This document shows positions 2,964-33,515 of a stretch of 64,000 bases of DNA, piece after piece; positions within the stretch are counted from its first letter, which is position 1, and each line of letters starts with the position of its first letter. Where the stretch lies: contig CP066690.1 in the NCBI GenBank assembly GCA_016432465.1, forward strand, positions 462,823 through 526,822. Reading direction: 5' to 3'. The position numbers and the translations under genes were made by a program. The DNA is from Candidatus Sungiibacteriota bacterium. Lineage in GTDB: Bacteria; Patescibacteriota; Minisyncoccia; Sungbacterales; HO2-52-23. Below the pieces are notes generated by a model. That model saw only the letters and a list, made by a program, of their open reading frames with translations, did not search any database and had not been told where the DNA came from.

Positions 2964-4064
2964 TTACTCTCTTGTTTCAAAATGCACATGGCAACCGGTG
3001 GAATTGCCCGTGGACCCCATGGTTGCTACCTGACTGCCCTGAGCCACCTCCTGCCCGACAAAGGCCAGAATAGAACCAAGATGAGCAAGGAGAACGGTCC
3101 CTCTTTGGTGAGAAATAGCCATGTACCATCCATAACCGCCGTTCCATCCAGAAGAGCGGGCGATGATAACCTTGCCCGCGACCGGGGCAAGAACAGGCGC
3201 CCCGCAGTAACTTGCCAAATCAATTCCACTCTTTTTGTATCCGTGCGGCCCTTGGGTTTGTCTCCCACCAAAAATAGGCCTCATATAGTATCCCATGGGG
3301 GCGGTCGAAAGGGCCGTTGTTTTTGACGGTTGACTGAGGGGTGGCGCAGGGGGCGTCGCCATCTCCCCGTCGGGAATGATCAACGTCATGCCTGGTTTAA
3401 TTAGCTCATCTATGCTCAAGCCGTTGAAAATTCTGATTTCGTTTTCATCACCCTTGAATTTTCTGGCGATGGAGGAAATCGTATCGCCTTTTTTTACTTC
3501 AACTTGAATGCCGGGCACCGGTAGTATAAGAACGTCATCCCCGACCTTTATCAGATTTGGGTTGCGAATGTTATTTGCCCAAAGAAGGGTATTTAGAGAA
3601 ACACCAAAATTGTCTGCAATGGCCCCGGGTGTGTCTCCCGGCTGTACGGTGTAGACCAATATTCTGCCGGGGTTATTATTTGGTAGGGTGCCGCTGGGGT
3701 TTCGGTTGGCAACCAAAGCGCTGTCTTGGGTCGCAGAAAGAGGCGGCATATCGTCGTCAACAGAACCACCAATGGCAGGAGACGCATTGGCGCTCTGGCT
3801 ACCAAGAAGAGGTATAGATATGGAGAATAAAGATGATTCCTGGCTACTATTTTCTCCTCCGCTAACAAAAAACTTAACTATGGCGGAAAAAAGACCGGCA
3901 TGCGCGGGTTGGGGCGCAGTCGCTAAAACAATCAGCAACATAGCTCCAAAAACAAATAGCCCTTTTCTGAAAAGGGGCCTATATATGCTAAATTTTTGGA
4001 GTTCACCCAAGGGCGATTTGTTTCGCAAAAGAATAACCTTTAGAGCACTGTCCCAAGTGGCCAA
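2964..4064 (-). CDS. secreted LysM-domain peptidase M23 (peptidoglycan endopeptidase)
   Basis: Two LysM-like repeats (YTVQPGDTPGAIADNFGV and VEVKKGDTISSIARKF) and a C-terminal M23 signature GSTGNSTGCHVHFE. The true start is probably the internal Met near 3941, which gives a signal peptide MLLIVLATAPQPAHA. Confidence 0.75.
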   Translation of the reverse strand: MATWDSALKVILLRNKSPLGELQKFSIYRPLFRKGLFVFGAMLLIVLATAPQPAHAGLFSAIVKFFVSGGENSSQESSLFSISIPLLGSQSANASPAIGGSVDDDMPPLSATQDSALVANRNPSGTLPNNNPGRILVYTVQPGDTPGAIADNFGVSLNTLLWANNIRNPNLIKVGDDVLILPVPGIQVEVKKGDTISSIARKFKGDENEIRIFNGLSIDELIKPGMTLIIPDGEMATPPAPPLSQPSKTTALSTAPMGYYMRPIFGGRQTQGPHGYKKSGIDLASYCGAPVLAPVAGKVIIARSSGWNGGYGWYMAISHQRGTVLLAHLGSILAFVGQEVAQGSQVATMGSTGNSTGCHVHFETRE

Positions 4065-7002: not shown

Positions 7003-7356
7003 CTAAGGACTAGTGCCTATAATGGCTGCTGGAAATCCGGCTCCGGCAGGAAGCGGTCCGACAAAGCAAACTGTCGGCGATGGGGCGTGCGTACCCAAAG
7101 CCCAGGCCCCCGGATGAAAGGCGCCAAATAAAAAAATAAGCGTTCCTGGGGTCATTACAACGACCGACCGCGGCCCGGAAATACCAACTACGGTTATCAA
7201 AAAACCCGGTGGTGTTGTGCAGGGACTGACAAACGTGATCCTGCCACCAAAGGGCAAAAATGCAGCTCCAGCCTGCGCTCGACCATAAAGAGCGCCTGTA
7301 AAGAATAGGGCGCCAACAACAATGACAAGCAAAAACAAAAGCCTAGTTTTTATCAC
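7003..7356 (-). CDS. small hypothetical secreted or membrane protein
   Basis: 117-aa ORF with an N-terminal signal-anchor LLFLLVIVVGALFFTGALYG; Gly/Pro-rich with no recognisable motif; may be spurious. Confidence 0.3.
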   Translation of the reverse strand: MIKTRLLFLLVIVVGALFFTGALYGRAQAGAAFLPFGGRITFVSPCTTPPGFLITVVGISGPRSVVVMTPGTLIFLFGAFHPGAWALGTHAPSPTVCFVGPLPAGAGFPAAIIGTSP

Positions 7357-7437
7357 ACCTTCATTCTACTCTAGCCGCAGAAAGTTATCCACAATCCCCA
7401 CAAAGATAACCTCTCTATTTAGAGGTATAATAAAAGT

Positions 7438-8388
7438 GTGAAAACTTGGTTTGGCATTATCCTGCCAACTTTAAAAAAAGCGGGGTTAATTCTTGCTGTT
7501 TTGGTGTTTCTTGCACTTATAGCAGGGACGTTTTTCCGCCAAAATAAAAAAGATGCTTCGGTGGAGGGGGGCGCTACAGCCGCCCCAAAAAAACAGCAAA
7601 TTCAACTTACCCAAGATAGCGACAGCGACGGCCTTAAAGATTGGGAAGAAGCGATATACCGAACCGATCCTCATAACGCCGATACTGACGGGGACGGCGC
7701 CAAAGACGGCGAAGAAATAGCGCAGAACCGCAACCCCCTACAAGCCGGCCCCGGAGATTTTTTGGCCGCATCCGCCCCAACTGCTGGAAAAGGCGGGGTT
7801 GAACCCGCAAAAAATATTACGGACCGCCTTATCCAGCTTTTTGGCGCAAAATATTTTGCTCAAAGGATTAACGATCCCGACCAGCCCCTAGACGTACAGG
7901 AAATCGCCAACGATATAGCCCAAAATATACCCAGCTACCAGTCCTCAATCAAACCGTTTCTGTTAAAAGACCTGACGATTTTGAAAAACAGCACCCCCGA
8001 AAACATAAAGAACTGGGCTAAAAGTTTTGACGCCATCAACGAAGAGGCGTTTGCGGGCATAAACGAGGCCGAAATTTCTATTCTCATAAAGGCGCTTAGC
8101 ACCGAAGATTACTCTCTTCTGGCGGAGTTGGATAAACACATTACTGCATATAACACAACCCTGGAACGGATGAGGAAACTCGTTGTCCCATCCGAGTTTG
8201 CTTCTTTCCAGTTGCGCTTTATGAATATAGCGCTGGAGTTGCGGGAGCTCGCGCAAAATTTTAAGAAGGCGGACAAAGATGTGCTGGCTGCGTCCAGCGG
8301 GGTACAGTCCTACCTTAAACTTGCCAGCGAAATTCAAACCATCAGCCAAAACGTAAAGCAGGAACTAAGACGTAGAAATCTTTTGTGA
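7438..8388 (+). CDS. hypothetical membrane-anchored protein with Asp-rich calcium-binding-like repeats
   Basis: 316 aa; N-terminal TM helix; DSDSDGLKDWEE and DTDGDGAKDGEE repeats resembling thrombospondin type 3 or dockerin calcium loops. It is the first gene of the T4SS-like cluster. Confidence 0.5.
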   Translation: MKTWFGIILPTLKKAGLILAVLVFLALIAGTFFRQNKKDASVEGGATAAPKKQQIQLTQDSDSDGLKDWEEAIYRTDPHNADTDGDGAKDGEEIAQNRNPLQAGPGDFLAASAPTAGKGGVEPAKNITDRLIQLFGAKYFAQRINDPDQPLDVQEIANDIAQNIPSYQSSIKPFLLKDLTILKNSTPENIKNWAKSFDAINEEAFAGINEAEISILIKALSTEDYSLLAELDKHITAYNTTLERMRKLVVPSEFASFQLRFMNIALELRELAQNFKKADKDVLAASSGVQSYLKLASEIQTISQNVKQELRRRNLL

Positions 8389-8389
8389 T

Positions 8390-10198
8390 ATGAACAGTCC
8401 CGGCTTTATAAAAAAAATCCTGTCTCCAGTACTCATTGCCGTGGTTATTTCCCTGCAGGTGCTAGGACCGCTTGCTATTCCGTTTACTGTTCAGGCGCAA
8501 ACTCCCGGACCCTTGGGCGGGACCCCGATTGATGCTTCGCAGTTTACCAACTTCGGGGCTGCTTCCGCTGCTGGCGTTTTGCTAACTGTTCCCACAAGGT
8601 CAAACCCAATATTCAGCGGCCCCTCTTTCCTTGATTGGGGAAATCTCAAAGAATACATTCTTGACCAGATTGCCACCATCATAACCACAACCGTTATTCG
8701 CTCCCTTACCCGTCAGGTTCTGGCTTGGATTCAGGGGGGCAATGTGGGATTTGTATCCATACTGGAGCAAGAATTCCAGCATGCGGCTGACATAGCGGGG
8801 GGTGACTTTTTGCAGAAAATCTCACCCATTGATCTTTGCGGCAATATAAGCGCTTATCTAAGGATTACCCTCCGCGTTCCGGGTTTACGCCAGCGTTTAT
8901 TCTGTACAGTCACTGATATTGCCAAAAACTTAAATAACTTCTATCGGGACTTTAAACAGGGGGGCTGGAAATCTTTTATTCAAGTCGTGGTTGAGCCGCA
9001 AAACAACCCCTATGGCGCGTTTCTCATTGCGCTGGACGCCAAGATAGGGGCAGAAAGAAACGCCCGCGAAACTCTGCTAGCTAAGTACATAGCGGGTCGC
9101 GGCTTTACGGGTGTGCAAAAAACAGTCAAATACGGCTGCGAGGTAACCGGAGTGAAAGAAGGACGACGCACGGCAAGCGAAGTTACCTGCGGAAACGCGC
9201 AGAAAATCACCCTGCCCGGCGATCAGGTTGCCCAACAACTCGGATTTGTTCTTACCAACGACTACCGCAAGGCGCTGCTGGCCGACGAAATAAACGAAGC
9301 TATTGTGACCATTACCAACGCCCTTATTACTAAAGTGATTTCTGCCGCCTTCTCCATAGAAAGCGGGGGCACAACAGTGGGCGGGGACGGATTGGAAAGC
9401 CCGGAGCTTAGCAGGACTCCGCCCACTGAAAGTTTTTCATCGGGAGAAATTCCTTTAAGGGTTAATGAGGCCCTGTTTACGTCGGAAAGTTATCTTGCTG
9501 CGCTTGACCGGGATAGCGCCTCGGCACGCAACCAGCTTTTTTCTCTGCGCCAACGGATAGAACAAATTGTTCTTGACCCGGCCGCGAACCAAAACGAAGC
9601 AGATGAATTACGCGTACAAGCCAAAACCCAAGAAGATGTTATGACCCGACTAAGCGAACAAAAGCAAGCGGTGCTGGTCAGCCAACGCGAACTTCTGGCT
9701 CTTAAACTTAGCTTATTAACCACCGGTGACCTTTCCTCCTTAGTCAACGACTTTACGCGGGCCGTTACCCGACTGGTAGTCGCGGGCAACAGCGTTGCCA
9801 ACGCTCCAATTCCTGCTACGTCTTCCGGCAACGAAGGAACTGATATTCGGTTGTTGATGAGTGCCGGTATGGGTGATCTGCAAGGAGCTGCATCCCAAAT
9901 TCAGACAACCCTAAGTGAGATAGACCGCTTGGCAAAAAGCAGTCTTATAAGTACGGCCCAGAAACAGGACTTAATTTCTGCGCGCGCCGCACTGGTGAAA
10001 GAGCAGGCACAAATCCAGAATGCCTTAACAGAGGTGGCCCGACTGGGAAACAAATTGTTAACAGAAGAGGGCGAGAAACTTAAAGACACCCAAATAAACT
10101 CACTAAGACTGCTCGTCGTAAACAGCGTCGCCCTTTCGTCTTTGCTGACCGTATTGTCCACAGCCGATAAGTCGCTCAAGCTTACCCCCGCACAATGA
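8390..10198 (+). CDS. large secreted hypothetical protein (T4SS-like cluster)
   Basis: 602 aa; N-terminal signal or TM segment; C-terminal heptad-rich coiled coil; translationally coupled to its neighbours, with the 8390 start 2 nt after the previous stop. Confidence 0.5.
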   Translation: MNSPGFIKKILSPVLIAVVISLQVLGPLAIPFTVQAQTPGPLGGTPIDASQFTNFGAASAAGVLLTVPTRSNPIFSGPSFLDWGNLKEYILDQIATIITTTVIRSLTRQVLAWIQGGNVGFVSILEQEFQHAADIAGGDFLQKISPIDLCGNISAYLRITLRVPGLRQRLFCTVTDIAKNLNNFYRDFKQGGWKSFIQVVVEPQNNPYGAFLIALDAKIGAERNARETLLAKYIAGRGFTGVQKTVKYGCEVTGVKEGRRTASEVTCGNAQKITLPGDQVAQQLGFVLTNDYRKALLADEINEAIVTITNALITKVISAAFSIESGGTTVGGDGLESPELSRTPPTESFSSGEIPLRVNEALFTSESYLAALDRDSASARNQLFSLRQRIEQIVLDPAANQNEADELRVQAKTQEDVMTRLSEQKQAVLVSQRELLALKLSLLTTGDLSSLVNDFTRAVTRLVVAGNSVANAPIPATSSGNEGTDIRLLMSAGMGDLQGAASQIQTTLSEIDRLAKSSLISTAQKQDLISARAALVKEQAQIQNALTEVARLGNKLLTEEGEKLKDTQINSLRLLVVNSVALSSLLTVLSTADKSLKLTPAQ

Positions 10199-12693
10199 TT
10201 TATAGCCGCAAAAAAACGTTAATAATAGTTCTCGGGGCCGCAGTGCTTATGCTTGGTTGGGTTTTGGTTTCAACCCACATTGCCGCTGCCGGTCCAACGC
10301 CAACAGGCCCGGTTGCTGTTTCTCCTCTTCAAAACGCCCTTGTCGGAACTTTGGGAAATCTCGGAAACGCTGCTTCCGCGGCCATTGCCATACTTGTGGG
10401 ACTGGCGCTTTTACAGTCGTTTTTGGCGGTTATCCTTGGTTATGTTGGCGTCCTTCTTAATAATCTTTTTTACTACAATACCATCCTGAACCCCTCCAAC
10501 ATTACAGTGGTTCAGGAGGGCTGGGCTATTGCCCGCGATGTGGCTAATGGCCTGTTTATCCTGATTTTGCTTTGGATTGCCTTTACCATTATTTTCAACG
10601 TTGAAAATCTTGGGGGTAAAAAACTAATAGTCCGGGTAATTTTAATTGCGCTTCTTATAAATTTTAGTCTGGCTATGGTATCGGCGGTTTTTGCTTTTTC
10701 CAACGTTCTGGCGCGCCCATTTCAAAACATCATCAAGGACCACGATGTGGCCGGCCTTATTATCGCACGCTCCAAACTCCACACCATTGTATCGCAGGTA
10801 AGAGACGAGGGTGTTATTCATGATTTTGAAAAAGAGGCGCTGAAGCGCGACCTTGAGGAACAAGCTAAAAGGTCCCAAGAATCCGGGGCCGGAGAACTGG
10901 GCGGAGAAATAAGCCGGAGGGCGGGTCAAAATTCGCTTCTGGCGTATCTCGGAGCGCCCAAAACCGCAGAAGCAGCTATAGACTTGAGAATGCTGGCGAT
11001 CTGCGGCCTAGGCGCCTTATCCGGCGTAGGAACGCCGGGCGGAGTGGTTTGTCTTGGTGCCACTATTGCCGGCGCCTTACTGGCTTCGCTGGGAGGCTGG
11101 TTCGTGGCCGGCTCCCTGATCCAAACCGGCTGGAACGCTGTTTTAAATCTTGCGGTCTCAAATATTTTCCTTATTTTAGCCACCTTTGCGATGGCAACAG
11201 CCGCTATTGTGCTTTTGGCTCGTATTATTGCCATGGTGTTTCTGGCCACACTTGCGCCCATTGCCCTGATGCTGCATATGATTCCCGGGGGTTTTGCCCA
11301 AAAACTCTGGAATGACTGGCTAAGCAGTGTTATAAAGTGGGCTTTTTATGCGCCGGCGTTTTACTTTCTTTTTTTCATGTCTTTGCGGGTGTTGGGGGAG
11401 CTGTCTAAAGGAACGCAATTTTTCGACGAGCCGGTCCCATTCCAAGGAAACGTATTTGCGGTCATGGCCCTGCTTGTCTTTCTTGGTTTTCTCTATGCAT
11501 CCATAATTGTGGCGCGCAAAATGGGTATAACGGTGGCCGACAGCTTTATTGGCTGGGGTAAAAAAATGGGGGCAGGCGCGCTTGGTTTGGCCGGCGGGGT
11601 TGTGGGCGGAGCAATCAGCCGCACGGGTTCTGCCCTGTTTAGAACCGTTGCTCCTGCCGGAGGAAGAATACAGCAGACGCTGCAGAAATCTGCCGGCGTA
11701 CCGTGGCTGCGGACGCTGGGCGGAGTTGCCGCCGGCGCTTATCTGGGGAGGATGACCGCGGAGAAAAAGGGCGTTGAGGACGCCTCCTCAAAATTGGCCT
11801 CGTACAGCAAAGAGGAGAAAGTCGCGGCCCTGCGCCGCGCCGTTACCGCCAAAGATACCGTGGCTGCGGCCCGGGCTCTTGGAAAAGATATCAACGACCC
11901 AACTATTTCTGAAGATCAAAAAAACCGCGCTCTGCGTCTGGCAACTCAATATGGAATGCAGATGGACCTTTTGAAGTTTATGCCGGAGAAAGCCACAAAG
12001 GACCTTGTCCCCGGGGCCAGTAGCGAGACGGACGCAATTGATAAGGTTGTATCCCGTATAAAACCAGATGAGTTGCCTAACATTTCTGAAAAATCACTGG
12101 AGAAAGAACCCGTCCAAATAGCTCTTCGCAAATATCTTACGCCAGAACACCTAAAACAGGTTGCCCGCAGTCCGCGCCCGGAACTGCTGACAAACATAAT
12201 TAGTGCCCTCAACGGCACAGGTTTAAGAAGAGAAACTTACAATTTCCTTGAAAGCGGTGGCGGCCGGGCAATCGGACTATACCTTCCCCCCAAGGCGCGC
12301 ATGGCCGCAGCCGGTGAAGAAGAAGAAAGAATAACAAAAGCCGGAGAAATTCTGGAACGCACCAAAAAGGGTCTTCAACAGACAAGGCGGGAAAAGCTAG
12401 GGATGGAGGGAAACATAGAGGCTCTGGAAAACACCGTAAGCGCGCTGCTTTCCGGGCTTGCGGCGTTACCCGAAGAAGAAAGGGGGGATGTGAAAAAAGA
12501 AATAGGACGTCTTAGGAATATTGAAATCGTTAAACTTAGAAATCATCTTGATGTTTTGAACAAGCGCATCAGGGCGCTGGAAACAGAACATAAAGAGGCG
12601 GAGGATGTGTTGGGCGGACCCAGGACAAGACCGACGGACGCTGCTGTTCCGCCGCCCGTCGGGATGCCGGAAGAAGAGGAAGAAGAAAGATAA
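10195..12693 (+). CDS. polytopic membrane protein, VirB6/TrbL-like candidate with a long cytoplasmic coiled-coil C-terminal extension
   Basis: 832 aa; at least six long hydrophobic helices in the N-terminal 450 aa; Gly-rich loops; charged coiled-coil tail ending EEEEEER; lies next to a VirB4-type ATPase. Confidence 0.5.
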   Translation: MIYSRKKTLIIVLGAAVLMLGWVLVSTHIAAAGPTPTGPVAVSPLQNALVGTLGNLGNAASAAIAILVGLALLQSFLAVILGYVGVLLNNLFYYNTILNPSNITVVQEGWAIARDVANGLFILILLWIAFTIIFNVENLGGKKLIVRVILIALLINFSLAMVSAVFAFSNVLARPFQNIIKDHDVAGLIIARSKLHTIVSQVRDEGVIHDFEKEALKRDLEEQAKRSQESGAGELGGEISRRAGQNSLLAYLGAPKTAEAAIDLRMLAICGLGALSGVGTPGGVVCLGATIAGALLASLGGWFVAGSLIQTGWNAVLNLAVSNIFLILATFAMATAAIVLLARIIAMVFLATLAPIALMLHMIPGGFAQKLWNDWLSSVIKWAFYAPAFYFLFFMSLRVLGELSKGTQFFDEPVPFQGNVFAVMALLVFLGFLYASIIVARKMGITVADSFIGWGKKMGAGALGLAGGVVGGAISRTGSALFRTVAPAGGRIQQTLQKSAGVPWLRTLGGVAAGAYLGRMTAEKKGVEDASSKLASYSKEEKVAALRRAVTAKDTVAAARALGKDINDPTISEDQKNRALRLATQYGMQMDLLKFMPEKATKDLVPGASSETDAIDKVVSRIKPDELPNISEKSLEKEPVQIALRKYLTPEHLKQVARSPRPELLTNIISALNGTGLRRETYNFLESGGGRAIGLYLPPKARMAAAGEEEERITKAGEILERTKKGLQQTRREKLGMEGNIEALENTVSALLSGLAALPEEERGDVKKEIGRLRNIEIVKLRNHLDVLNKRIRALETEHKEAEDVLGGPRTRPTDAAVPPPVGMPEEEEEER

Positions 12694-12697
12694 AACC

Positions 12698-13399
12698 ATG
12701 CCTGCTTATACCCAAAAAGAACTAATAGAGCGTTTCCAAAAACTTCCGGCTATTCTGCAGGATGCGCTATTTAGCGGCGATCTTACCGGCAAGATTTTTG
12801 AGACTGGGAAAAAATTTGGTTTAACCATTGAAAAAATAGGATTTTTGGCAGAAGAGGTTGGTTACGTGATACTGGGTCTTACCCGACCAGGCGAATTTGC
12901 AGCCAAACTGGCTGACCGCCTTGGGGTTGATCTGAACTCTGCCAAAACTATTGCCCTTGATATAAATCACAAAGTTTTTTCCCAGCTGCGTGAAGCGCTA
13001 AAGTCGGCACACGAAACAGAAATCACCGCGGAAGAAATACAAAGGGCAGAACCGCTGGTGCGGGTTGCCCCAACCGCGCCTCCTCCGGCTCCAGCCGCGC
13101 CGACCTCAATTCCATCAGCCGCTCCGCGGCCAGCAACCCCAAAAGAAGTAGTTCCTCCCCAGCCGCAACCAAAACCCCAGCCGCTGCAGCCAGCCGCAAA
13201 AGAAGAGCCTGTTCGGATCCCGCAAACACCACAACCTCCACAATCCAAAATTCCGCCCATTGACCTCCGGCGGGAACAAAGACCAGCGATGCAACCGCCA
13301 ACAGCAACCCCCCAACCAGAGTCAAAACCGCCAGCTCCCGTTCCGGAAAAGAAAACACCACATTCGGGTTTTGACCCGTACAGAGAACCCATAGAATAA
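12698..13399 (+). CDS. hypothetical protein with a Pro-rich low-complexity C-terminal half
   Basis: The ATG at 12698 gives MPAYTQKELIERFQKLPAIL. The second half is a PAPAAPTSIPSAAPRPATP...PQPQPKPQPLQP linker. The 12605 start in the ORF track overlaps the upstream gene. Confidence 0.5.
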   Translation: MPAYTQKELIERFQKLPAILQDALFSGDLTGKIFETGKKFGLTIEKIGFLAEEVGYVILGLTRPGEFAAKLADRLGVDLNSAKTIALDINHKVFSQLREALKSAHETEITAEEIQRAEPLVRVAPTAPPPAPAAPTSIPSAAPRPATPKEVVPPQPQPKPQPLQPAAKEEPVRIPQTPQPPQSKIPPIDLRREQRPAMQPPTATPQPESKPPAPVPEKKTPHSGFDPYREPIE

Positions 13400-13428
13400 C
13401 CATGATTTTTTAAAGACTTGGTACCATT

Positions 13429-13854
13429 ATGCGCCAATTTCAGGTTCCACAATTTATTACTGTAGAGGATCGCGTTATCGGTCCCCTAACAATTAGACAG
13501 GCCCTTTACGTAGGCGCCGGGGTTCTTCTGGTTTTAGGCGCGCGCACCCTGCTTGAACCCTTTCTTTTTGTGCCCACGGCCATACTTATCGGGGTTCTGA
13601 CCGCTTCTCTTGCTTTTCTTAAAATAGGCGAGAGGCCGTTTCCGCTGATTTTGAAAAACGCGGTTTTTTACCTGCTCCGTCCCAGATTGTACATCTGGAA
13701 AAAGAGCGTGGTCGAGAAAAAACCAGCAGGGGTCGCAGCCCCCAAGTCGGAAGTTCTGGTAAAAAGCATCCCCAAGCTTTCCCAGTCCAAACTTTCTGAC
13801 CTTGCCTGGAGCTTAGACATTAAAGAAAAAGCCAACCCACCACCTTCGTCGTAG
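13429..13854 (+). CDS. small two-TM membrane protein, PrgI/VirB3-like candidate
   Basis: 141 aa with two adjacent hydrophobic helices (LYVGAGVLLVLGA and VPTAILIGVLTASLAFL) upstream of the VirB4-type ATPase, the usual position of VirB3/PrgI. Confidence 0.45.
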   Translation: MRQFQVPQFITVEDRVIGPLTIRQALYVGAGVLLVLGARTLLEPFLFVPTAILIGVLTASLAFLKIGERPFPLILKNAVFYLLRPRLYIWKKSVVEKKPAGVAAPKSEVLVKSIPKLSQSKLSDLAWSLDIKEKANPPPSS

Positions 13855-13910
13855 GACTTCCTGCGTGGCGGCGGGGCATAATTTAGTAATAAAAGTGGTA
13901 AAATAACAAG

Positions 13911-14552
13911 ATGCCAACAGCAACTTCGGCTCAAGAATTTTTAGCCATTGATACTGTACGGGAGGATGCCGTTGTCTTAAAGGACGGGGGACTGCGCGTT
14001 GTTTTGATGTGCTCTTCCTTAAATTTCGCTTTAAAATCTTCCGAGGAACAGGATGCGGTCATCTTTCAGTACCAAAACTTTTTAAATTCGCTTGATTTTT
14101 CGCTGCAATTTGTAATTCACTCCCGTAAGTTAAACATAGAGCCGTATCTGGAGTCGCTAAAAGAGCGCCAAAAAGAAGAAGACAGCGACCTGCTAAAAAT
14201 TCAAATATACGAATACCAGGAGTTTATAAAAACCTTTGTTTCCATGACCAACATTATGTCAAAAACTTTTTACGTGGTTGTTCCCTTCACGCCGAGCGCT
14301 CTTGAAAGGGGGGGGTTTTGGAGAGACTGGCTGGAAACGCTGGGCCTTTCCCCACAAAAAAAACAAAACTCCACCGGTCTTTTTGAGGAACATAAAAATC
14401 AGCTTTGGCAGAGAGTGGACACAGCCGTTTCCGGCTTACACAGCTTTGGAATCAGGGCAGTGCCCCTCAACACCGAGGAGTTAATAGAGCTTTTCTACGG
14501 ACTTTATAACCCCACGGAGTTTGAAAAAACCATTGCCCCCGGCGAGGGTTAA
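13911..14552 (+). CDS. hypothetical protein of the T4SS-like cluster
   Basis: 213-aa soluble ORF immediately upstream of the VirB4-like gene, 20 nt away; no recognisable motif. Confidence 0.5.
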   Translation: MPTATSAQEFLAIDTVREDAVVLKDGGLRVVLMCSSLNFALKSSEEQDAVIFQYQNFLNSLDFSLQFVIHSRKLNIEPYLESLKERQKEEDSDLLKIQIYEYQEFIKTFVSMTNIMSKTFYVVVPFTPSALERGGFWRDWLETLGLSPQKKQNSTGLFEEHKNQLWQRVDTAVSGLHSFGIRAVPLNTEELIELFYGLYNPTEFEKTIAPGEG

Positions 14553-14572
14553 ATTCTGTGGGATAAAAAACT

Positions 14573-16381
14573 ATGGCCTTGTTTGGAAAAAAAGAAAAAA
14601 AACCAGAAGAAGAAATCTTTGCGGTATTCCCGGAAGAAATATATCGGGCTGGGGAGCTGGCGTTAAAAGACGTCCTTGCGCCCTCGGCTCTGGAGGTAAA
14701 ACCAACCTACGTCAGGCTGGGCGCTAAACTTGCGCACATGGTTTTTGTCTTCTCTTATCCGCGCTATCTCCACACCAACTGGTTTAGTCCCATAATCAAC
14801 CTGGATAAACTCTTTGATATATCCATGTACGTGCACCCGGTTGATACCGCCTCCATACTAAAAACGCTGCGCAGAAAAGTAGCTCAGGTGCAGTCGCAAA
14901 TTTCCATGCGTGAAGAAAAAGGACTGGTGCGCGATCCCATACTGGACACGGCCTACAGAGACCTGGAAGAGCTGCGTGACAAACTGCAACAGGCAACTGA
15001 AAAATTGTTCAATTTCGGTCTATACCTCACGATCTACGGCTTTTCGGAAGACGAAATAAATAAAACCGAGAGCGAAATAAAGTCGGTATTGGAAGCGCGC
15101 TTGGTCTACACCAAACCGGCCCTCTTCCAACAAAAAGAGGCGTTTCAGTCGGTTCTGCCGCTAAATACCGATAAACTAAACATTAACACCTACCTTAACT
15201 CCTCGCCTGTGTCCTCAACTTTTCCGTTTGTTTCCTTTGACCTTACCTCCAACAGAGGAATTCTCTACGGCATAAATCGCCACAACAACAGCTTGGTTCT
15301 TTTTGACCGCTTCTCCCTGCCCAACTACAACTCTGTTATCTTTGGGACGGCCGGTGGGGGGAAAAGCTACCTTTCCAAGCTTGAGATTCTGCGCTCGCTC
15401 ATGTGGGGAGTGGACGTAATTGTCATAGACCCGGAGCGGGAGTACGAATACTTATCGCAAGCCGTAGGCGGATCTTACGTAAACATTTCGTTGACTTCCA
15501 AAAACCACATAAACCCCTTTGACCTGCCTATTCCGCGCGAGGACGAATCTCCGGCCGACGTTCTTCGCTCCAACACCGTAAACCTGATCGGTCTTTTCCG
15601 CCTGATGTTGGGGGGACTGACGCCGGAAGAAGACGCTATTTTGGATCAGGCCATTACCGAAACCTATGCCTCGCGCGACATAACTCCAGAATCGGATTTC
15701 TCCAAGATTACCGCGCCTACGCTATCGGACTTGGAACTTGTATTGGCTTCAACCGCCGGCGGGGAGTCACTGGCCATGCGCCTCAAAAAATATACCTCCG
15801 GCACTTGGGCCGGCTTCGTTAACCAGCCAACCAATATTGAGATGAAAAACCGCCTGGTTGTTTTTTCGGTGCGCGACATGGAGGACGAACTGCGACCGGT
15901 AGGTATCTTTCTCATCCTCCGTTATATCTGGAACGTTGTTCGCACTACCCTTAAAAAAAGGCTCCTTGTGGTGGACGAGGCGTGGTGGCTTATGAAAAAC
16001 GAGGACGGCGCGTCGTTTCTTTTTGGAATTGCCAAGCGCTCCCGGAAATATTTTCTGGGCCTTTCCACCATTACGCAGGACGTGGGTGATTTTTTAAACT
16101 CCCCTTACGGAAAACCAATAATAACCAATTCCTCCCTACAAACATTGCTAAAACAATCTCCGGCCACAATTGATCTTGTGGTTAGCACCTTTAACCTAAC
16201 GGAGGAAGAAAAATTTCTGCTGTTGGAGTCGGAGCGGGGCGAGGGTATTTTCTTCGCAGGACTAAAACATATCGCCATAAAAGTCATTGCCTCCTACACC
16301 GAAGACCAAATCATAACCTCTGATCCGGCTCAGCTTCTTTTGATTAAAAAGGCTAAGGCCGAATACGCCGGGGGAGAATAG
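14573..16381 (+). CDS. VirB4/TraE/PrgJ-type conjugation or T4SS ATPase (Gram-positive type)
   Basis: 602 aa; N-terminal LAPSALEVKPTYVRLGAKLAHMVFVFSYPRY block typical of TraE/PrgJ; Walker A GTAGGGKSYLSK; Walker B LLVVDEAWWLM; conserved LSTITQD motif. Confidence 0.8.
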   Translation: MALFGKKEKKPEEEIFAVFPEEIYRAGELALKDVLAPSALEVKPTYVRLGAKLAHMVFVFSYPRYLHTNWFSPIINLDKLFDISMYVHPVDTASILKTLRRKVAQVQSQISMREEKGLVRDPILDTAYRDLEELRDKLQQATEKLFNFGLYLTIYGFSEDEINKTESEIKSVLEARLVYTKPALFQQKEAFQSVLPLNTDKLNINTYLNSSPVSSTFPFVSFDLTSNRGILYGINRHNNSLVLFDRFSLPNYNSVIFGTAGGGKSYLSKLEILRSLMWGVDVIVIDPEREYEYLSQAVGGSYVNISLTSKNHINPFDLPIPREDESPADVLRSNTVNLIGLFRLMLGGLTPEEDAILDQAITETYASRDITPESDFSKITAPTLSDLELVLASTAGGESLAMRLKKYTSGTWAGFVNQPTNIEMKNRLVVFSVRDMEDELRPVGIFLILRYIWNVVRTTLKKRLLVVDEAWWLMKNEDGASFLFGIAKRSRKYFLGLSTITQDVGDFLNSPYGKPIITNSSLQTLLKQSPATIDLVVSTFNLTEEEKFLLLESERGEGIFFAGLKHIAIKVIASYTEDQIITSDPAQLLLIKKAKAEYAGGE

Positions 16382-16414
16382 GAATAATTCCTGGTAAAAA
16401 GTTATAATTAATTT

Positions 16415-17404
16415 ATGACGCGTTTAACCCTACCAGTCGTGGCCCTGATTATTTGGGGCGTCTCTGCCTCGCTGTTTTCCTATGCACAGGTGTCAAATCT
16501 TTTCTCGGTTTCGTTGGTTACCAACCCGTCTTCACCGTCGCCCGGGGATACGATTAAGATTTTTGCGGCCACGCCAACACTGGATAAAAATTCAGCGGTA
16601 TTTTCTTGGTATATAGACGGCAGTCCCAAGCCCGACCTTTCCGGGCCCGGAAAAGATTCCATAAATATCACCGCCGGAAACGCTGGTTCGGCTATACGCA
16701 TACGGGTAGTTGTTGACAGCGCTGCGGACGGAAGCGCCGAGGTTTCCATGACCATACGTGTTTCGGATCTCGCCTTAACTTGGTTTGCGCAAACCCGTAT
16801 TCCGGCATGGTACAGAGGCAAAGCGCTTCCCGTCCCCGGATCCATTGTTAATATCGTGGCCATTCCGCAGATTACTACGCGTCTTGGTCCCATACGCCCC
16901 GAGGACCTAATTTATACTTGGGGTTTAAATGACGACATAAAAGTTCTTTCTGGGGTTGGGGAACAGGTGTTTCGTATTAAAACTTCTGACCTTCCCAACA
17001 CTTCGCACCACATAAAACTTGTGGTTGAAGATATTAATAAAGAGGTGCATAGAGAGGGAGAACTTTTTATAGTCCCCACCAACCCGCGGGTTGTTATTTA
17101 TAAAACCTCGCCCTTGGGCGGCGTGGAGACGCGTTCTGCCTCGACTTTTTTGGAAGCCCCCCAACAGGGCCTGATTGATTTCCAAGCAGAACCATTTTTC
17201 TTTCCGGTAACATCGCGGGGAAGCCTTAAATACCGCTGGGAAGTCGCCGGAACAGAGGTAGCGGGCGATCCGGGAAATCCTTTTATTCTGACCCTTGATA
17301 CCGCCCAACAACTGCTTAAGCAACTCGCCATATCGGTTTGGGTGGATGACGACGATGCCCTTCTACCTTCTGCCTCGGGGTCTGTAACCCTAAACTTTCC
17401 ATGA
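16415..17404 (+). CDS. secreted hypothetical protein (signal peptide, beta-rich)
   Basis: 329 aa; signal peptide LTLPVVALIIWGVSASLFSYAQV; Ig-like beta-strand-rich composition. Confidence 0.5.
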   Translation: MTRLTLPVVALIIWGVSASLFSYAQVSNLFSVSLVTNPSSPSPGDTIKIFAATPTLDKNSAVFSWYIDGSPKPDLSGPGKDSINITAGNAGSAIRIRVVVDSAADGSAEVSMTIRVSDLALTWFAQTRIPAWYRGKALPVPGSIVNIVAIPQITTRLGPIRPEDLIYTWGLNDDIKVLSGVGEQVFRIKTSDLPNTSHHIKLVVEDINKEVHREGELFIVPTNPRVVIYKTSPLGGVETRSASTFLEAPQQGLIDFQAEPFFFPVTSRGSLKYRWEVAGTEVAGDPGNPFILTLDTAQQLLKQLAISVWVDDDDALLPSASGSVTLNFP

Positions 17405-18144
17405 AGACACTTTTTTACCTAGGCCTAACGCTTCTTGTTTTGAGCCAATTCATTTATGGGGGGTTTGTGTATGCCCAAAACGGCTGCCGTAGCGAACTTA
17501 ACGGACACTGCGTTGAGGCTGCTGCGGTGGTTCAGGCCCAAATACGCGGCCTTGAGTTTTTAGATATTCCTCAAGACGCAGATATCGGAAACGTACTTTC
17601 CCGAATATATGTTTTTGGGCTGGGGCTGGTGGGCTTGGCCGCTCTTATTATGTTTATTTTAGGGGGGGTGTTGTATCTTACGGCTGGGGACTCGCAAAGT
17701 CAGGTGGGAAAAGCAAAAAGTTATATGGGCAATGCCGTTTGGGGACTGGTTTTAGCTCTGCTTTCCTGGCTTATACTTTTTACTATTAATCCTAACTTGG
17801 TAAAAAAGATTAATCTTAAGTTAAGGCCCATTAGTCTTACGGACGAGGAATTGCGCAATATACCCAAACCCGCAAACTTTATCGGCTCGGATAAGGACTG
17901 GGATTTTATAAAGGGTGGTGGGGTCAACGCCGCAACGGGCGTTAAGTGCGCAGATGGAAGGTCGGCCGTTGGCGGCGCTGTGGCCCGCAAAAAACTTAAC
18001 TGCGAATATGTCAGAATAAAAATACGGGGCGACCCGTCCCTGAAGTCTAGGGGCATAGGCATTGGGGATAACGCCGCGCCTGTTCCCTACGAAACGTGGA
18101 AGGAACAGTGCAACCGTGATGTTTGCATGGATATTGATAAATAA
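17401..18144 (+). CDS. membrane protein with a VirB2/TrbC-pilin-like hydrophobic helix pair and a Cys-rich C-terminal domain
   Basis: 247 aa; signal peptide, then two long hydrophobic helices (IYVFGLGLVGLAALIMFILGGVLYL and AVWGLVLALLSWLILFTI) as in T4SS pilins, plus a roughly 110-aa tail with about six Cys residues. Confidence 0.4.
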   Translation: MKTLFYLGLTLLVLSQFIYGGFVYAQNGCRSELNGHCVEAAAVVQAQIRGLEFLDIPQDADIGNVLSRIYVFGLGLVGLAALIMFILGGVLYLTAGDSQSQVGKAKSYMGNAVWGLVLALLSWLILFTINPNLVKKINLKLRPISLTDEELRNIPKPANFIGSDKDWDFIKGGGVNAATGVKCADGRSAVGGAVARKKLNCEYVRIKIRGDPSLKSRGIGIGDNAAPVPYETWKEQCNRDVCMDIDK

Positions 18145-18147
18145 AAC

Positions 18148-19332
18148 ATGGAGGACGATATCAAAGCTAAAAAAAGGAAAATTTATATAGTAATCGGGGC
18201 GGCCGCTGCTGCAGTCTTGGGTGTTTTTATTTACCGGGCGCTTGCTCCCGGTCAAATAACTGTTCCCCGGCCGCCGGTTCGCGTAACTGGCCGCGCGTCC
18301 GGATTCCCGGCAAAAACTCTGGAAGAAATAAGTACACTGAAAGAACTAAAACCCGGCGAAGAGCTGTCTGTGGGACCGGAGCAAAAACTTATAAAACTCA
18401 CCGACTTTTCGGTCATATCCACCGCGCTTAACAAAGAAGAAAATAAAATTCTCTTTTACAAGAAAGACGGCGGGGATCTTTTTGCCTCGGATTTTACCGG
18501 CAGAAGCTTAGAAAAAATTTCTAATATTACGGTGGTGGGTATGGTTGGGGCCGTTTGGTCTCCGTCCAAAGACCGGGCAGCCGTAATTTATCTGGACGGA
18601 GAAACCCTGCGCGGCTTTCTGCATATAGGGACCTCGTCTGTTGCGGTGCTTCCCCAAAACATTCAGGGTTTTAGCTGGTCACCGGACGGAAAGGCTATTG
18701 CCTATATTCTGCCGCTGGATGGAAAACTTTCTCTGACTTTGGCGGACGCTTCCGGAAAAAAACAAAAAGTCATTGCCGGTCTTCCGCCGCTTGATGCCTC
18801 TATCCGTTGGGTTGCAAAAGACACGATTGCCCTTGAAACCGCTGCTTCTGGTCTGGCTGAAGGCTATCTTCTTTCTTTTACTCCCTCATCGGGGCTGTTC
18901 AAAAAGATATTGGGGCCCAATTTTGGTCTTACCACCAGTTGGTCTTCGGACGGATCCCGCCTGCTTGCGTCTTACCTTGATTCTGCTGGAGGAATAGTAG
19001 GTGTTGGGGTGTACGCTCCTTCCGGAGAACTCATTGCCTCAACAGGCCTGATTACCCTGCCAGAAAAATGTTTCCTGGTGCCGTCCAATGAACTTTTCTG
19101 TGCCGTGCCCAGAGACATCCCATCCAATAGTGTTTGGCCGGACGAATACCTGAGGGGCGAACTCAACACAGCGGATCGGATCTTATCTTTTGACCTCAAA
19201 ACCGGGGCAACGCGCGAAATATTTGACAGTATAAGTTTTGACGTGTCAGAACTTTTAGTGACTAAAAACAAGGAGGCTTTGTTTTTTATAAACAGGCTGG
19301 ATGGAACACTCTGGGCACTGAAACTAAGGTAA
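18148..19332 (+). CDS. membrane-anchored beta-propeller protein (TolB-like repeats)
   Basis: 394 aa; N-terminal TM helix; repeated WSPSKDRAAVIY, WSPDGKAIAY and WSSDGSRLLAS blades. Confidence 0.55.
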   Translation: MEDDIKAKKRKIYIVIGAAAAAVLGVFIYRALAPGQITVPRPPVRVTGRASGFPAKTLEEISTLKELKPGEELSVGPEQKLIKLTDFSVISTALNKEENKILFYKKDGGDLFASDFTGRSLEKISNITVVGMVGAVWSPSKDRAAVIYLDGETLRGFLHIGTSSVAVLPQNIQGFSWSPDGKAIAYILPLDGKLSLTLADASGKKQKVIAGLPPLDASIRWVAKDTIALETAASGLAEGYLLSFTPSSGLFKKILGPNFGLTTSWSSDGSRLLASYLDSAGGIVGVGVYAPSGELIASTGLITLPEKCFLVPSNELFCAVPRDIPSNSVWPDEYLRGELNTADRILSFDLKTGATREIFDSISFDVSELLVTKNKEALFFINRLDGTLWALKLR

Positions 19333-22867: not shown

Positions 22868-22972
22868 GATACTTTTAATTTTCATTCTTAAAGAAATCAA
22901 CAAATAATCACCACCTTGTTTACATCCGTTGGATCTTAGTGGGTGACTATCTGTTGGTATAAAAATACATTT

Positions 22973-22981
22973 TTATCCACA
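22973..22981 (+). promoter_or_regulatory. perfect DnaA box TTATCCACA in the AT-rich dnaA-dnaN spacer (candidate oriC / DNA-unwinding region)
   Basis: Exact consensus 9-mer followed by the AT-rich TTCTTTATTAATAATAATAAGTTATTTTCTATTAACTAACA. Confidence 0.5.
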
Positions 22982-23027
22982 GCATATTCTTTATTAATAA
23001 TAATAAGTTATTTTCTATTAACTAACA

Positions 23028-31850: not shown

Positions 31851-33515
31851 CTAGTCCGTTCCCACAACCCGTTCCAGCTCCTCAAAATCCGTGATCCCAG
31901 CCAGTACCTTCAGGAGGCCGTCTTGGCGCATGGTTATTTGATCTTGGCGCTCGGCCTCTTTTTTTATTTCAAATTCTGAAGGCTCTCTTAAAATAAGTCT
32001 TTCCACAACATCATTAATTAAAATAATTTCAAAAACCCCAATCCGGCCTTTATAACCGATGCCGCTGCAGTCGTCGCATCCTTTGGGGGTGACCTTGAAG
32101 ATTTTCCAATCCTTGGGCAGAGGAGCTTTTTTGGGGTAACGGCCGAGCTCCGCTTCTATTTTCTTTTTTTCCGCAACCCCCACGCTTACGGGAGTGCGGC
32201 AGCGGACACAAAGTTTTCTTAAAAGTCTCTGGGCCATGGTTATGTTTATGGCCGGCGCGATGATGGCAGGTTTTACTCCGAGATCAAGCAGTCTTGGAAT
32301 TGTGCCGGCGGCCGAGTTGGTGTGCAGCGTGGAAAAAACCAGATGTCCGGTCAGGGCCGCATGCATGGCCGTCTCCGCCGTTTCAAAATCTCTAATCTCA
32401 CCCACCAGTATCACGTCCGGGTCCTGTCTTACTATAGCCCTGAGGCCGTTAGCAAAATCGTAGCCATTCTCGGGGCTCACCTGTGTTTGTTCTACACCAA
32501 CGAGGTGGTACTCTATGGGGTCTTCTATGGTAATAATTTTCACACTCGGCGAATGGATTTTTTTTAAAAAAGCGTAAAGAGTTGTTGTTTTTCCAGAACC
32601 AGTGGGACCTGTGGTTAGAATCATGCCGTTTGGTTTTTTAAGCTCATCCGCCACAATCTCAATAATCCAGGATTGCATACCAAGCTCTTCAAATGGTACC
32701 TGTAGTGCTTTGGGGTTTAGAATCCGAAGGACGGTGTTTTCTCCGTGGGGTCCGGGAAGAACAGAGGTTCTAATTTCAATATCCGTAGAGTTGGTTTTAA
32801 CCGTAAAACGGCCGTCTTGTGCCCTATCGTGCACGTTCAGCTTTAGTTCGGAAATAAGCTTGATTCTGGAAAGGAGCAGATTGTAAACTTTGGGCGGCAG
32901 ACTGGCTACGTCGTGGAGCAGGCCGTCCAGACGGAAACGAAGACGCACCTTTTCTTTTTGCGGCTCTACATGTACGTCCGAGGCCTCCAGTCCCAGCGCC
33001 CCGGCAAGAATTATTTCCAGTACCTCGGTGGTGCGCCCGGCAAGCCCTTTTTCAATACGCAGTCCAACCCCCCCCAGAGTAGTAAGTTCTTTTTGAAGCT
33101 CAATTATTTTTTGGGGTGCTAACTGAACCGTGCCGGATGCCGCTTCGTACTCCACGGGTACTTTTTTATAAATCTCCCAGGCGCGGAGCAGACTTGATTT
33201 TGAGGCCAGATAAAGATTAAAGGTAAAATGATCTTCTTCCAGGCGCCGTAGGGCGGCCCTTGTCTCTTCTTTCTCCGGATTACGTACGGCAACATCAAGC
33301 CGTTTACCTGCTACCTGAAAAACCACAAGTTCGGCTCTGCGCGCCGTTTCCTCCGGAACTATTTTGATGGCGTCGGTCTCCACAGGAAAAGTGCCGAGAT
33401 CAACATAGGGTATTTTGTACTTTTGCGATAAAATTTTAACACTACTCTCTTCTTCTTTGCGTCGAAGGAGCTCAAGTTTTCTTTTCGGTTTTTCTTCCTC
33501 AAAGCGGGCTGTCAT
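31851..33515 (-). CDS. pilB: type IV pilus assembly / type II secretion ATPase PilB/GspE
   Basis: 554 aa; Walker A LTTGPTGSGKTTTLYAFL; Asp box; His box; C-terminal tetracysteine CVRC...CDDC. Confidence 0.85.
   Translation of the reverse strand: MTARFEEEKPKRKLELLRRKEEESSVKILSQKYKIPYVDLGTFPVETDAIKIVPEETARRAELVVFQVAGKRLDVAVRNPEKEETRAALRRLEEDHFTFNLYLASKSSLLRAWEIYKKVPVEYEAASGTVQLAPQKIIELQKELTTLGGVGLRIEKGLAGRTTEVLEIILAGALGLEASDVHVEPQKEKVRLRFRLDGLLHDVASLPPKVYNLLLSRIKLISELKLNVHDRAQDGRFTVKTNSTDIEIRTSVLPGPHGENTVLRILNPKALQVPFEELGMQSWIIEIVADELKKPNGMILTTGPTGSGKTTTLYAFLKKIHSPSVKIITIEDPIEYHLVGVEQTQVSPENGYDFANGLRAIVRQDPDVILVGEIRDFETAETAMHAALTGHLVFSTLHTNSAAGTIPRLLDLGVKPAIIAPAINITMAQRLLRKLCVRCRTPVSVGVAEKKKIEAELGRYPKKAPLPKDWKIFKVTPKGCDDCSGIGYKGRIGVFEIILINDVVERLILREPSEFEIKKEAERQDQITMRQDGLLKVLAGITDFEELERVVGTD

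Follow-up and report, generated by a model that had tools for sequence, protein, structure and literature searches.

A cluster of ten co-directional genes at positions 7438-19332 of the window, by which we mean the whole 64,000-nucleotide (nt) stretch analysed here (contig CP066690.1 of assembly GCA_016432465.1, positions 462,823 to 526,822 of the forward strand), is very probably a vertically inherited, chromosomal type IV secretion system (T4SS) of the Patescibacteria kind, derived from the MPF_FATA class. The host genome is a metagenome-assembled genome of Candidatus Sungiibacteriota (Paceibacteria), within the Candidate Phyla Radiation (CPR), as its CPR-like appearance had already suggested to a sequence-only reading of the window. 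That reading had described a Gram-positive-type, T4SS-like cluster with a role in secretion or as a surface appendage rather than in plasmid transfer. Both its finding and its interpretation are correct: the cluster is a collinear, vertically inherited block next to dnaA, and it is known as a kind, because it matches the descriptions of Quinonero-Coronel et al. (2025; PMC12102498) and Wang et al. (2023; PMC10633639). The locus is an instance of an already described Patescibacteria T4SS, and to judge from its genes this T4SS is most likely a non-conjugative, pilus-bearing envelope machine for host interaction. One detail of the otherwise known system is new, namely a conserved DnaA box in the promoter region of the operon.

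Gene content of the cluster

The ten genes and their products, several of them predicted, are as follows (aa, amino acids; TM, transmembrane):

7438-8388, + strand: g1, 316 aa, with an N-terminal TM anchor, TSP3-type calcium-binding Asp repeats and a helical domain of ~200 aa without a known family
8390-10198, + strand: g2, 602 aa, a secreted or anchored surface protein with a conserved N-domain of ~280 aa and a variable C-terminus
10195-12693, + strand: g3, 832 aa, a polytopic membrane protein, extended and VirB6-like, whose large C-terminal domain is helical/coiled-coil
12698-13399, + strand: g4, 233 aa, cytoplasmic, with an N-domain of ~100 aa, a Pro-rich linker and a C-terminal DPYREP
13429-13854, + strand: g5, 141 aa, a PrgI/VirB3-like two-helix membrane protein (PF12666)
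13911-14552, + strand: g6, 213 aa, TrsD-like, resembling the N-terminal part of VirB4 but encoded by its own gene
14573-16381, + strand: g7, 602 aa, the middle and C-terminal parts of a VirB4 ATPase of MPF_FATA type
16415-17404, + strand: g8, 329 aa, secreted, with Ig-like domains
17401-18144, + strand: g9, 247 aa, a VirB2-like T4SS pilin (signal peptide, hydrophobic hairpin, C-terminal extension containing Cys)
18148-19332, + strand: g10, 394 aa, a membrane-anchored TolB-type beta-propeller

These coordinates bear out the tight, co-directional packing reported earlier, with all ten open reading frames (ORFs) on the + strand, intergenic gaps of -4 to 56 nt, and 4-nt ATGA overlaps at the g2/g3 (10195-10198) and g8/g9 (17401-17404) junctions. 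Nine genes had been counted; there are ten, and the earlier description itself covered ten products. For g4 the ORF listing has a start at 12605, and an ATG at 12698 comes after the stop of the preceding gene. A 449-nt spacer lies upstream of g1, and g10, the last gene of the cluster, is convergent with jag.

The VirB4 ATPase and its TrsD-like partner

The product of g7, which carries a Walker A (GTAGGGKS) and a Walker B (VVDEAW) motif, is a VirB4 ATPase, as had been proposed. Its match to the NCBIfam model NF045971 (VirB4-like conjugal transfer ATPase, CD1110 family) spans model positions 178-732 of 752 and scores 352.8 bits (E 3.9e-105), above the curated cut-off of 325; the mycoplasma integrative and conjugative element (ICE) VirB4, TraC and VirB4_CagE models match as well. 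The nearest solved structure is 4ag5, the C-terminal domain of a Gram-positive VirB4 (E 2.8e-44), with R388 TrwK far below it (E 7e-4). A better match to an FtsK/HerA-type ATPase would have refuted the earlier reading. Against the E of 3.9e-105 for the VirB4 families, HerA/DUF87 reaches E 5.5e-7 over 64 residues at the P-loop only, and because this match is limited to the P-loop neighbourhood we reject an FtsK/HerA identity for g7.

The 213-aa product of g6, thought to have no recognisable family, proves to be TrsD-like and to match the N-terminal part of VirB4. It is hit by NF045975 at positions 113-233 (E 1.7e-10), by NF041427 TrsD of the TrsD/TraD family (E 1.2e-6) and by NF045971 at positions 5-119 (E 1e-4), and bears PF26593 (TraC-like) in precomputed annotation; a PDB profile search with it gave no match. 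Together, g6 and g7 span nearly the entire VirB4 model. We considered a frameshifted VirB4 pseudogene and a sequencing frameshift as origins of this split; both are ruled out, because each of the 77 related loci examined (77/77) has g6 and g7 as separate, adjacent ORFs, and all three relative frames occur among them.

The membrane platform and the pilin

Among the membrane partners of the ATPase, g5 and g9 fit VirB3 and VirB2, and g3 fits VirB6 indirectly. For g5, the earlier description as a PrgI/VirB3-like two-helix protein agrees with a match to PF12666 (PrgI) of 29.9 bits, above the gathering threshold (GA) of 27, and with a TM hairpin at 30-64; the gene was found in 74 loci, with a median identity of 42%. 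The product of g9, previously seen as a pilin-like protein with a signal peptide, a helix pair and a Cys-rich part, matches PF18895 (T4SS_pilin) at 35.8 bits (GA 26.6), has TM-like segments at 69-87 and 111-129, and contains 6 Cys.

The product of g3 has about 8 TM-like segments, and indirect evidence suggests that it is an extended VirB6-like protein. We call it VirB6-like because of a profile match to TrwI and because of one homolog that is positive for TrbL. A profile of 31 orthologs matched R388 TrwI/VirB6 in PDB at E 0.02; a deeper profile did not recover this match. Among 56 database homologs, one (P0056) has PF04610 (TrbL/VirB6) at 30.4 bits (GA 25.9), and this domain, at residues 324-424 of P0056, falls inside the part of that protein that aligns to residues 316-483 of g3 (E 6e-11). 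A second block of P0056 aligns with g3 residues 105-172 at 46% identity. The AlphaFold2 model of g3 (predicted local distance difference test score, pLDDT, 79) consists of a helical membrane bundle and a very confident C-terminal helical domain.

Genomic context and conservation

A scan of GTDB species genomes gave 80 related loci, from Sungbacteria, Giovannonibacteria, Niyogibacteria, Tagabacteria, Terrybacteria, Vogelbacteria, Campbellbacteria and other Paceibacteria. In 79 of the 80, all detectable genes stand in the order seen in the window: UvrD-KsgA, the ten cluster genes, then Jag-YidC-DnaA. The genes are under strong purifying selection. Median identity across loci is 70% for VirB4, 53% for the TrsD-like protein, 50% for DnaA and 42% for PrgI, and VirB4 identity exceeds DnaA identity in all 46 loci in which both are complete, so that the constraint on VirB4 appears unusually strong for a secretion ATPase. 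Identities of 66-88% between g7 and the VirB4 of 80 Paceibacteria species imply that g7 probably belongs to the monophyletic Patescibacteria VirB4 clade.

The other scanned ORFs of the 64 kb that match a Pfam family all belong to housekeeping or general metabolism, with no mobility gene among them. The genes of the window include those for a DksA-like zinc-finger protein, a Mg-chelatase/ComM-type ATPase, a LysM-M23 peptidase, UvrD, KsgA, YidD, RnpA, DnaA, DnaN, PBP1, TyrRS, RuvABC, PolA, a PilB-type ATPase, UvrB, a Mur ligase and four tRNAs. A scan of about 50 ORFs of the window turned up neither a relaxase nor a coupling protein (VirD4/TcpA; type IV coupling protein, T4CP), in keeping with the earlier statement that VirD4 and a relaxase are missing from it, and the window contains no integrase, no replication gene of an element and no att-like boundary. 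The GC content of the cluster is unremarkable and resembles that of its surroundings. Because the locus is collinear in 79 of 80 species, its VirB4 is more conserved than DnaA, and mobility genes and a composition anomaly are both absent, we take the cluster to be a chromosomal operon that is inherited vertically and strongly constrained, rather than a mobile element.

These data also bear on the possibility that the cluster is a conjugative element of Gram-positive type, either an ICE or an integrated plasmid, that transfers DNA to other cells. Such an origin would account for the best VirB4 matches, which are to the CD1110/CTn2, mycoplasma ICE and TraC families, and for the presence of TrsD and PrgI, which are components of conjugative plasmids. 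It is at odds with the lack of every element-borne gene and boundary listed above, with a fixed site between ksgA and jag-yidC-rnpA-dnaA in 79 of 80 species, with the conservation of VirB4 and the native GC content, and with the scarcity of relaxases in Patescibacteria, which occur in only 103 of 3035 surveyed genomes (PMC12102498). The synteny has already largely refuted conjugative transfer, and we regard it as highly improbable.

Comparison with known systems

Quinonero-Coronel et al. (2025; PMC12102498) found VirB4 in 2417 of 3035 Patescibacteria genomes, as a clade nested in MPF_FATA and accompanied by TrsD, PrgI/VirB3, VirB6 and PF18895 pilins. In that survey relaxases are almost absent, T4CPs are rarely adjacent, and the T4SS of Paceibacteria lie near dnaA, dnaN, ksgA, rnpA and rpmH, a proximity to the origin that is explained by gene dosage only. 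The Sungiibacteriota locus shares with the Paceibacteria arrangement the FATA VirB4, the adjacent TrsD, PrgI/VirB3, a VirB6-like protein and a PF18895 pilin, as well as the absence of a nearby relaxase or T4CP and a chromosomal position near dnaA, ksgA and rnpA; nothing essential differs. The survey leaves the family-less neighbours unannotated, with no mention of TSP3, propeller or Ig-like partners, and does not mention promoters or DnaA boxes. The new leads from our locus are accordingly modest, namely a conserved accessory set and a promoter with a DnaA box. In comparative detail, the locus shows an operon VirB4 that stands above DnaA in conservation and a gene set, fixed at ten, in which five members have no counterpart in known T4SS.

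A homologous T4SS is essential for the epibiotic growth of Southlakia epibionticum (Wang et al., 2023; PMC10633639). That system (SEML1_0006-0019) likewise combines Gram-positive-like subunits with pilins and has no recognisable relaxase or coupling protein in the cluster, and its low locus-tag numbers suggest to us a site near the chromosome start. It differs in having six divergent pilins and peptidase and lysozyme genes downstream of virB4, whereas here there is a single pilin and no hydrolase within the operon; it is for the Southlakia system that essentiality has been demonstrated. An essential, relaxase-less, pilus-bearing T4SS ranks among the most intriguing open problems of CPR biology. 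Reviews call the role of the system completely unknown and name effector export or nucleic-acid import as candidates (PMC11665869 for import), and T4SS pilins are among the top-expressed genes of unknown function in cultured Paceibacterales that parasitise methanogens (PMC10936435).

Among conjugation systems, the Trs region of pGO1/pSK41 (TrsC-TrsD-TrsE, an MPF_FATA subclass) has the same order of VirB3-like, TrsD-like and VirB4 genes and likewise encodes the region resembling the VirB4 N-terminus in a gene of its own. Unlike our locus, the conjugative plasmid pGO1 carries a relaxase, a T4CP and the TrsG hydrolase, lacks a pilin, and has no recognisable VirB6 according to the survey (PMC12102498). 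The Prg/Pcf system of pCF10 shares the order PrgH(VirB6)-PrgI(VirB3)-PrgJ(VirB4), and CTn2 (CD1110) is the source of the family whose NCBIfam model fits g7 best; both differ from the locus in PrgK (VirB1), PrgL (VirB8-like), the PcfC T4CP, the PcfG relaxase and the PrgB adhesin, and in the lack of a VirB2 pilin. With the MPF_T systems R388 Trw and Agrobacterium VirB, the cluster shares a core of VirB2, VirB3, VirB4 and, putatively, VirB6, including the weak match between g3 and TrwI, but it has no VirB7/9/10 outer-membrane core complex, VirB5, VirB8, VirB11 or VirD4.

Accessory proteins

The other five proteins (g1, g2, g4, g8 and g10) appear to be conserved and lineage-specific, without counterparts among known T4SS components. 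For g1, the earlier description as an Asp-repeat, calcium-binding-like membrane protein is supported by TSP3 calcium-binding repeats (PF18884, E 1.9e-10) and a TM helix at 15-33; its profile matches the Bap repeat region in PDB (E 7.9e-7), and its orthologs, in 43 loci, are 300-360 aa long.

The 602-aa secreted protein g2 had been said to lack a recognisable family, and it does: neither Pfam nor NCBIfam gave a match, and in 26 orthologs no domain was matched except adhesin-type domains at the C-terminus, so that the N-domain has no family there either. The C-terminus is a coiled coil in the window's protein and bears CARDB/PKD/Ig modules in some orthologs. The N-domain (residues 60-345, window positions 8567-9424) has an invariant Cys and GGW and PQNNPYGA motifs. 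Its profile found 5289 representative clusters at E<=1e-3 in a library of 1.84 billion proteins, which is a lower bound on the size of the family (at least 5289 clusters at 50% identity). The AlphaFold2 model of g2 was unusable (pLDDT 40, from an alignment of 8 sequences). PDB profile searches with g2 and with g4 gave no match.

The g4 protein has no TM segment and no Pfam match. In 29 orthologs its N-domain and C-terminal DPYREP are kept while the Pro-rich linker varies greatly in length, and the DPYREP peptide could be a candidate docking peptide. One locus (L040) seems to have a g4-PrgI fusion, but this is an artefact produced by masked bases (N).

Two further proteins that had been listed as lacking a recognisable family can be placed. 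The 329-aa g8 has a signal-like N-terminus and contains Ig-like domains, as its profile matches the Ig-like domain of Hoc in PDB (E 2.9e-5); most of its 72 orthologs are ~300-356 aa long. For g10, the beta-propeller and the membrane anchor (TM helix 14-32) both stood, and only the statement about its family did not: it matches PD40 (E 1.7e-4), and its profile matches TolB in PDB (E 8.6e-7). Its 60 orthologs are 378-462 aa long.

A DnaA box in the operon promoter

Two elements lie in the spacer immediately upstream of g1:

7385-7393, + strand: perfect DnaA box TTATCCACA in the operon's promoter region
7426-7431, + strand: -10-like hexamer TATAAT, 6 nt before the GTG start of g1

From the box it is 32 nt to TATAAT and 45 nt to the first start codon. 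Of 43 loci, 42 have a -10-like hexamer, often in the extended form TGnTATAAT, and its median distance to the start codon is 10.5 nt. The 5' untranslated region of the operon may thus be short or absent (a leaderless transcript), and TATAAT may overlap an AGAGG Shine-Dalgarno-like motif.

If up to one mismatch is allowed, 28 of 42 related loci (67%) have a DnaA box in the 150 nt that precede the first gene, and in 14 of these the box is perfect. By the same criterion the nine other cluster genes and ksgA have a box in 0-8% of cases, against 57% on the upstream side of dnaA and 74% on its downstream side; the box at the operon promoter is as frequent as the boxes beside dnaA itself. Altogether, 39 perfect boxes occur in 1.33 Mb of loci, where about 10 are expected by chance, and 14 of these are in the operon promoter and 8 beside dnaA. 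The signal is positional, not global: window-wide there are 16 boxes against 11.2 expected, a count reached by 8 of 100 shuffles and so not above chance. The distances from box to -10 hexamer fall into three groups (21-23, 29-33 and 38-42 nt) at roughly the helical period, with a Rayleigh p of about 1e-4 to 2e-3 that is uncorrected for shared ancestry. This pattern is suggestive of DnaA acting at the T4SS operon promoter. In the literature that could be searched, we found no paper linking DnaA boxes to a Patescibacteria T4SS.

The ksgA-g1 spacer was also considered as the replication origin (oriC) and rejected, because it is not AT-rich (50% AT) and has one strong box. The likely oriC is the dnaA-dnaN spacer (22868-23027), with an AT content of 74% and a perfect DnaA box at 22973. 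With oriC there, the + strand T4SS operon, on its left, would be transcribed head-on to the replication fork. GC skew is nearly flat to the left of dnaA, and promoter and terminator consensus scans were uninformative. The ksgA-g1 spacer also holds a 117-aa ORF (7003-7356, - strand), divergent from the operon, with a signal peptide and two Cys; it belongs to no Pfam family and is not gene-called in the Logan record. In 7 other loci the ksgA-g1 interval contains a homolog with 33-42% identity to it, which may be on either strand.

Proposed function of the system

We propose that the VirB4 ATPase is made as two pieces, the TrsD-like g6 and g7, which would dock on a membrane platform formed by g5 (PrgI/VirB3) and the extended VirB6-like g3. 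VirB4 would then power the assembly of the pilin g9 into a pilus or conduit across the monoderm envelope. The predicted envelope proteins g1, g2, g8 and g10 may supply wall-spanning or adhesive parts, and g4 would be cytoplasmic. The machine would serve interaction with a host cell, through protein export or the import of host material, rather than conjugation, because the locus has no relaxase or coupling protein. The ten genes would form one operon, transcribed from the promoter with the DnaA box, and this box suggests that expression is probably tied to the state of the replication initiator.

Several observations weigh against parts of this proposal. For g3, described earlier as a polytopic VirB6/TrbL-like candidate, the VirB6 assignment is indirect: direct scans of Pfam and NCBIfam gave no family match and a Foldseek search of PDB with the g3 model gave no significant one, with TrwI at rank 50 (E 4.7). 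Sequence searches for SLT, CHAP (VirB1-type) and NTF2-like (VirB8-like) domains gave no match in the cluster. A T4CP could be encoded elsewhere in the genome, and distant VirD4 homologs occur in most genomes of the published survey (PMC12102498). The essentiality of the homologous system has been shown in Saccharimonadia only, not in Paceibacteria (PMC10633639). Lastly, the DnaA box is unrecognisable in one third of the related loci, and a single DnaA box is weak evidence for regulation.

The absence of VirB1 from the window had been noted previously. This holds for SLT and CHAP domains, yet a protein with LysM and Peptidase_M23 domains is encoded at 2964-4064 (- strand), 3.4 kb upstream of the cluster. 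In Paceibacteria, VirB1-type matches often bear LysM/M23 domains and lie near virB4 (PMC12102498), and by this analogy the protein may be the candidate wall hydrolase of the system.

Whether DnaA controls the Paceibacteria T4SS operon directly and the five lineage-specific proteins are true structural parts can be combined into one joint reading, which we offer tentatively, as possible though short of probable. If it is true, a consensus box would keep to a single face of the helix, some 38, 48 or 58 nt upstream of the likely transcription start, and an obligate epibiont would couple the assembly of its host-interaction machine to the state of replication or the cell cycle, beyond the dosage of origin-proximal genes. 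The surface-domain family of g2, with more than 5000 clusters and no Pfam or NCBIfam match, would then be part of a monoderm, pilus-bearing T4SS. The DnaA box offers a testable handle on the regulation of host-dependent growth.

A different function for the same parts would be the import of DNA or nucleotides, as in the ComB system of H. pylori or the archaeal Ced system, with a VirB4 motor and a pilus taking up host nucleic acid. This idea, raised in PMC11665869, would suit an organism unable to make nucleotides; a VirD4-less T4SS core with a pilin resembles ComB, genes for DNA repair and recombination are numerous in the window, and the DnaA box would tie expression to replication demand. 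The product of g7 also has a weak match to CedB (E 1.7e-11), but its score of 43.5 bits is far below the cut-off of 700, and no CedA or ComB-specific partner families were detected. Southlakia can dispense with ComEC competence but not with its T4SS, an observation that leaves import neither proven nor excluded. We consider this import of DNA or nucleotides unlikely.

Also rather unlikely, in our view, is an organelle mainly for adhesion, in which the pilus and the surface proteins would hold the epibiont on its host with nothing translocated. The many surface-type proteins (the TSP3, Ig-like and propeller proteins, and the g2 orthologs with CARDB/PKD tails), the conserved pilin, the lack of a coupling protein and the high expression of T4SS pilins in host-attached Paceibacterales are all compatible with attachment. 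However, the ATPase and the VirB3/VirB6 platform are extremely conserved, which suggests an active motor or channel, and type IV pili already provide adhesion in Patescibacteria. The window itself encodes a PilB-type T2SSE/MshEN ATPase (31851-33515, - strand; E 9.8e-113), which shows that a type IV pilus system is encoded apart from the T4SS.

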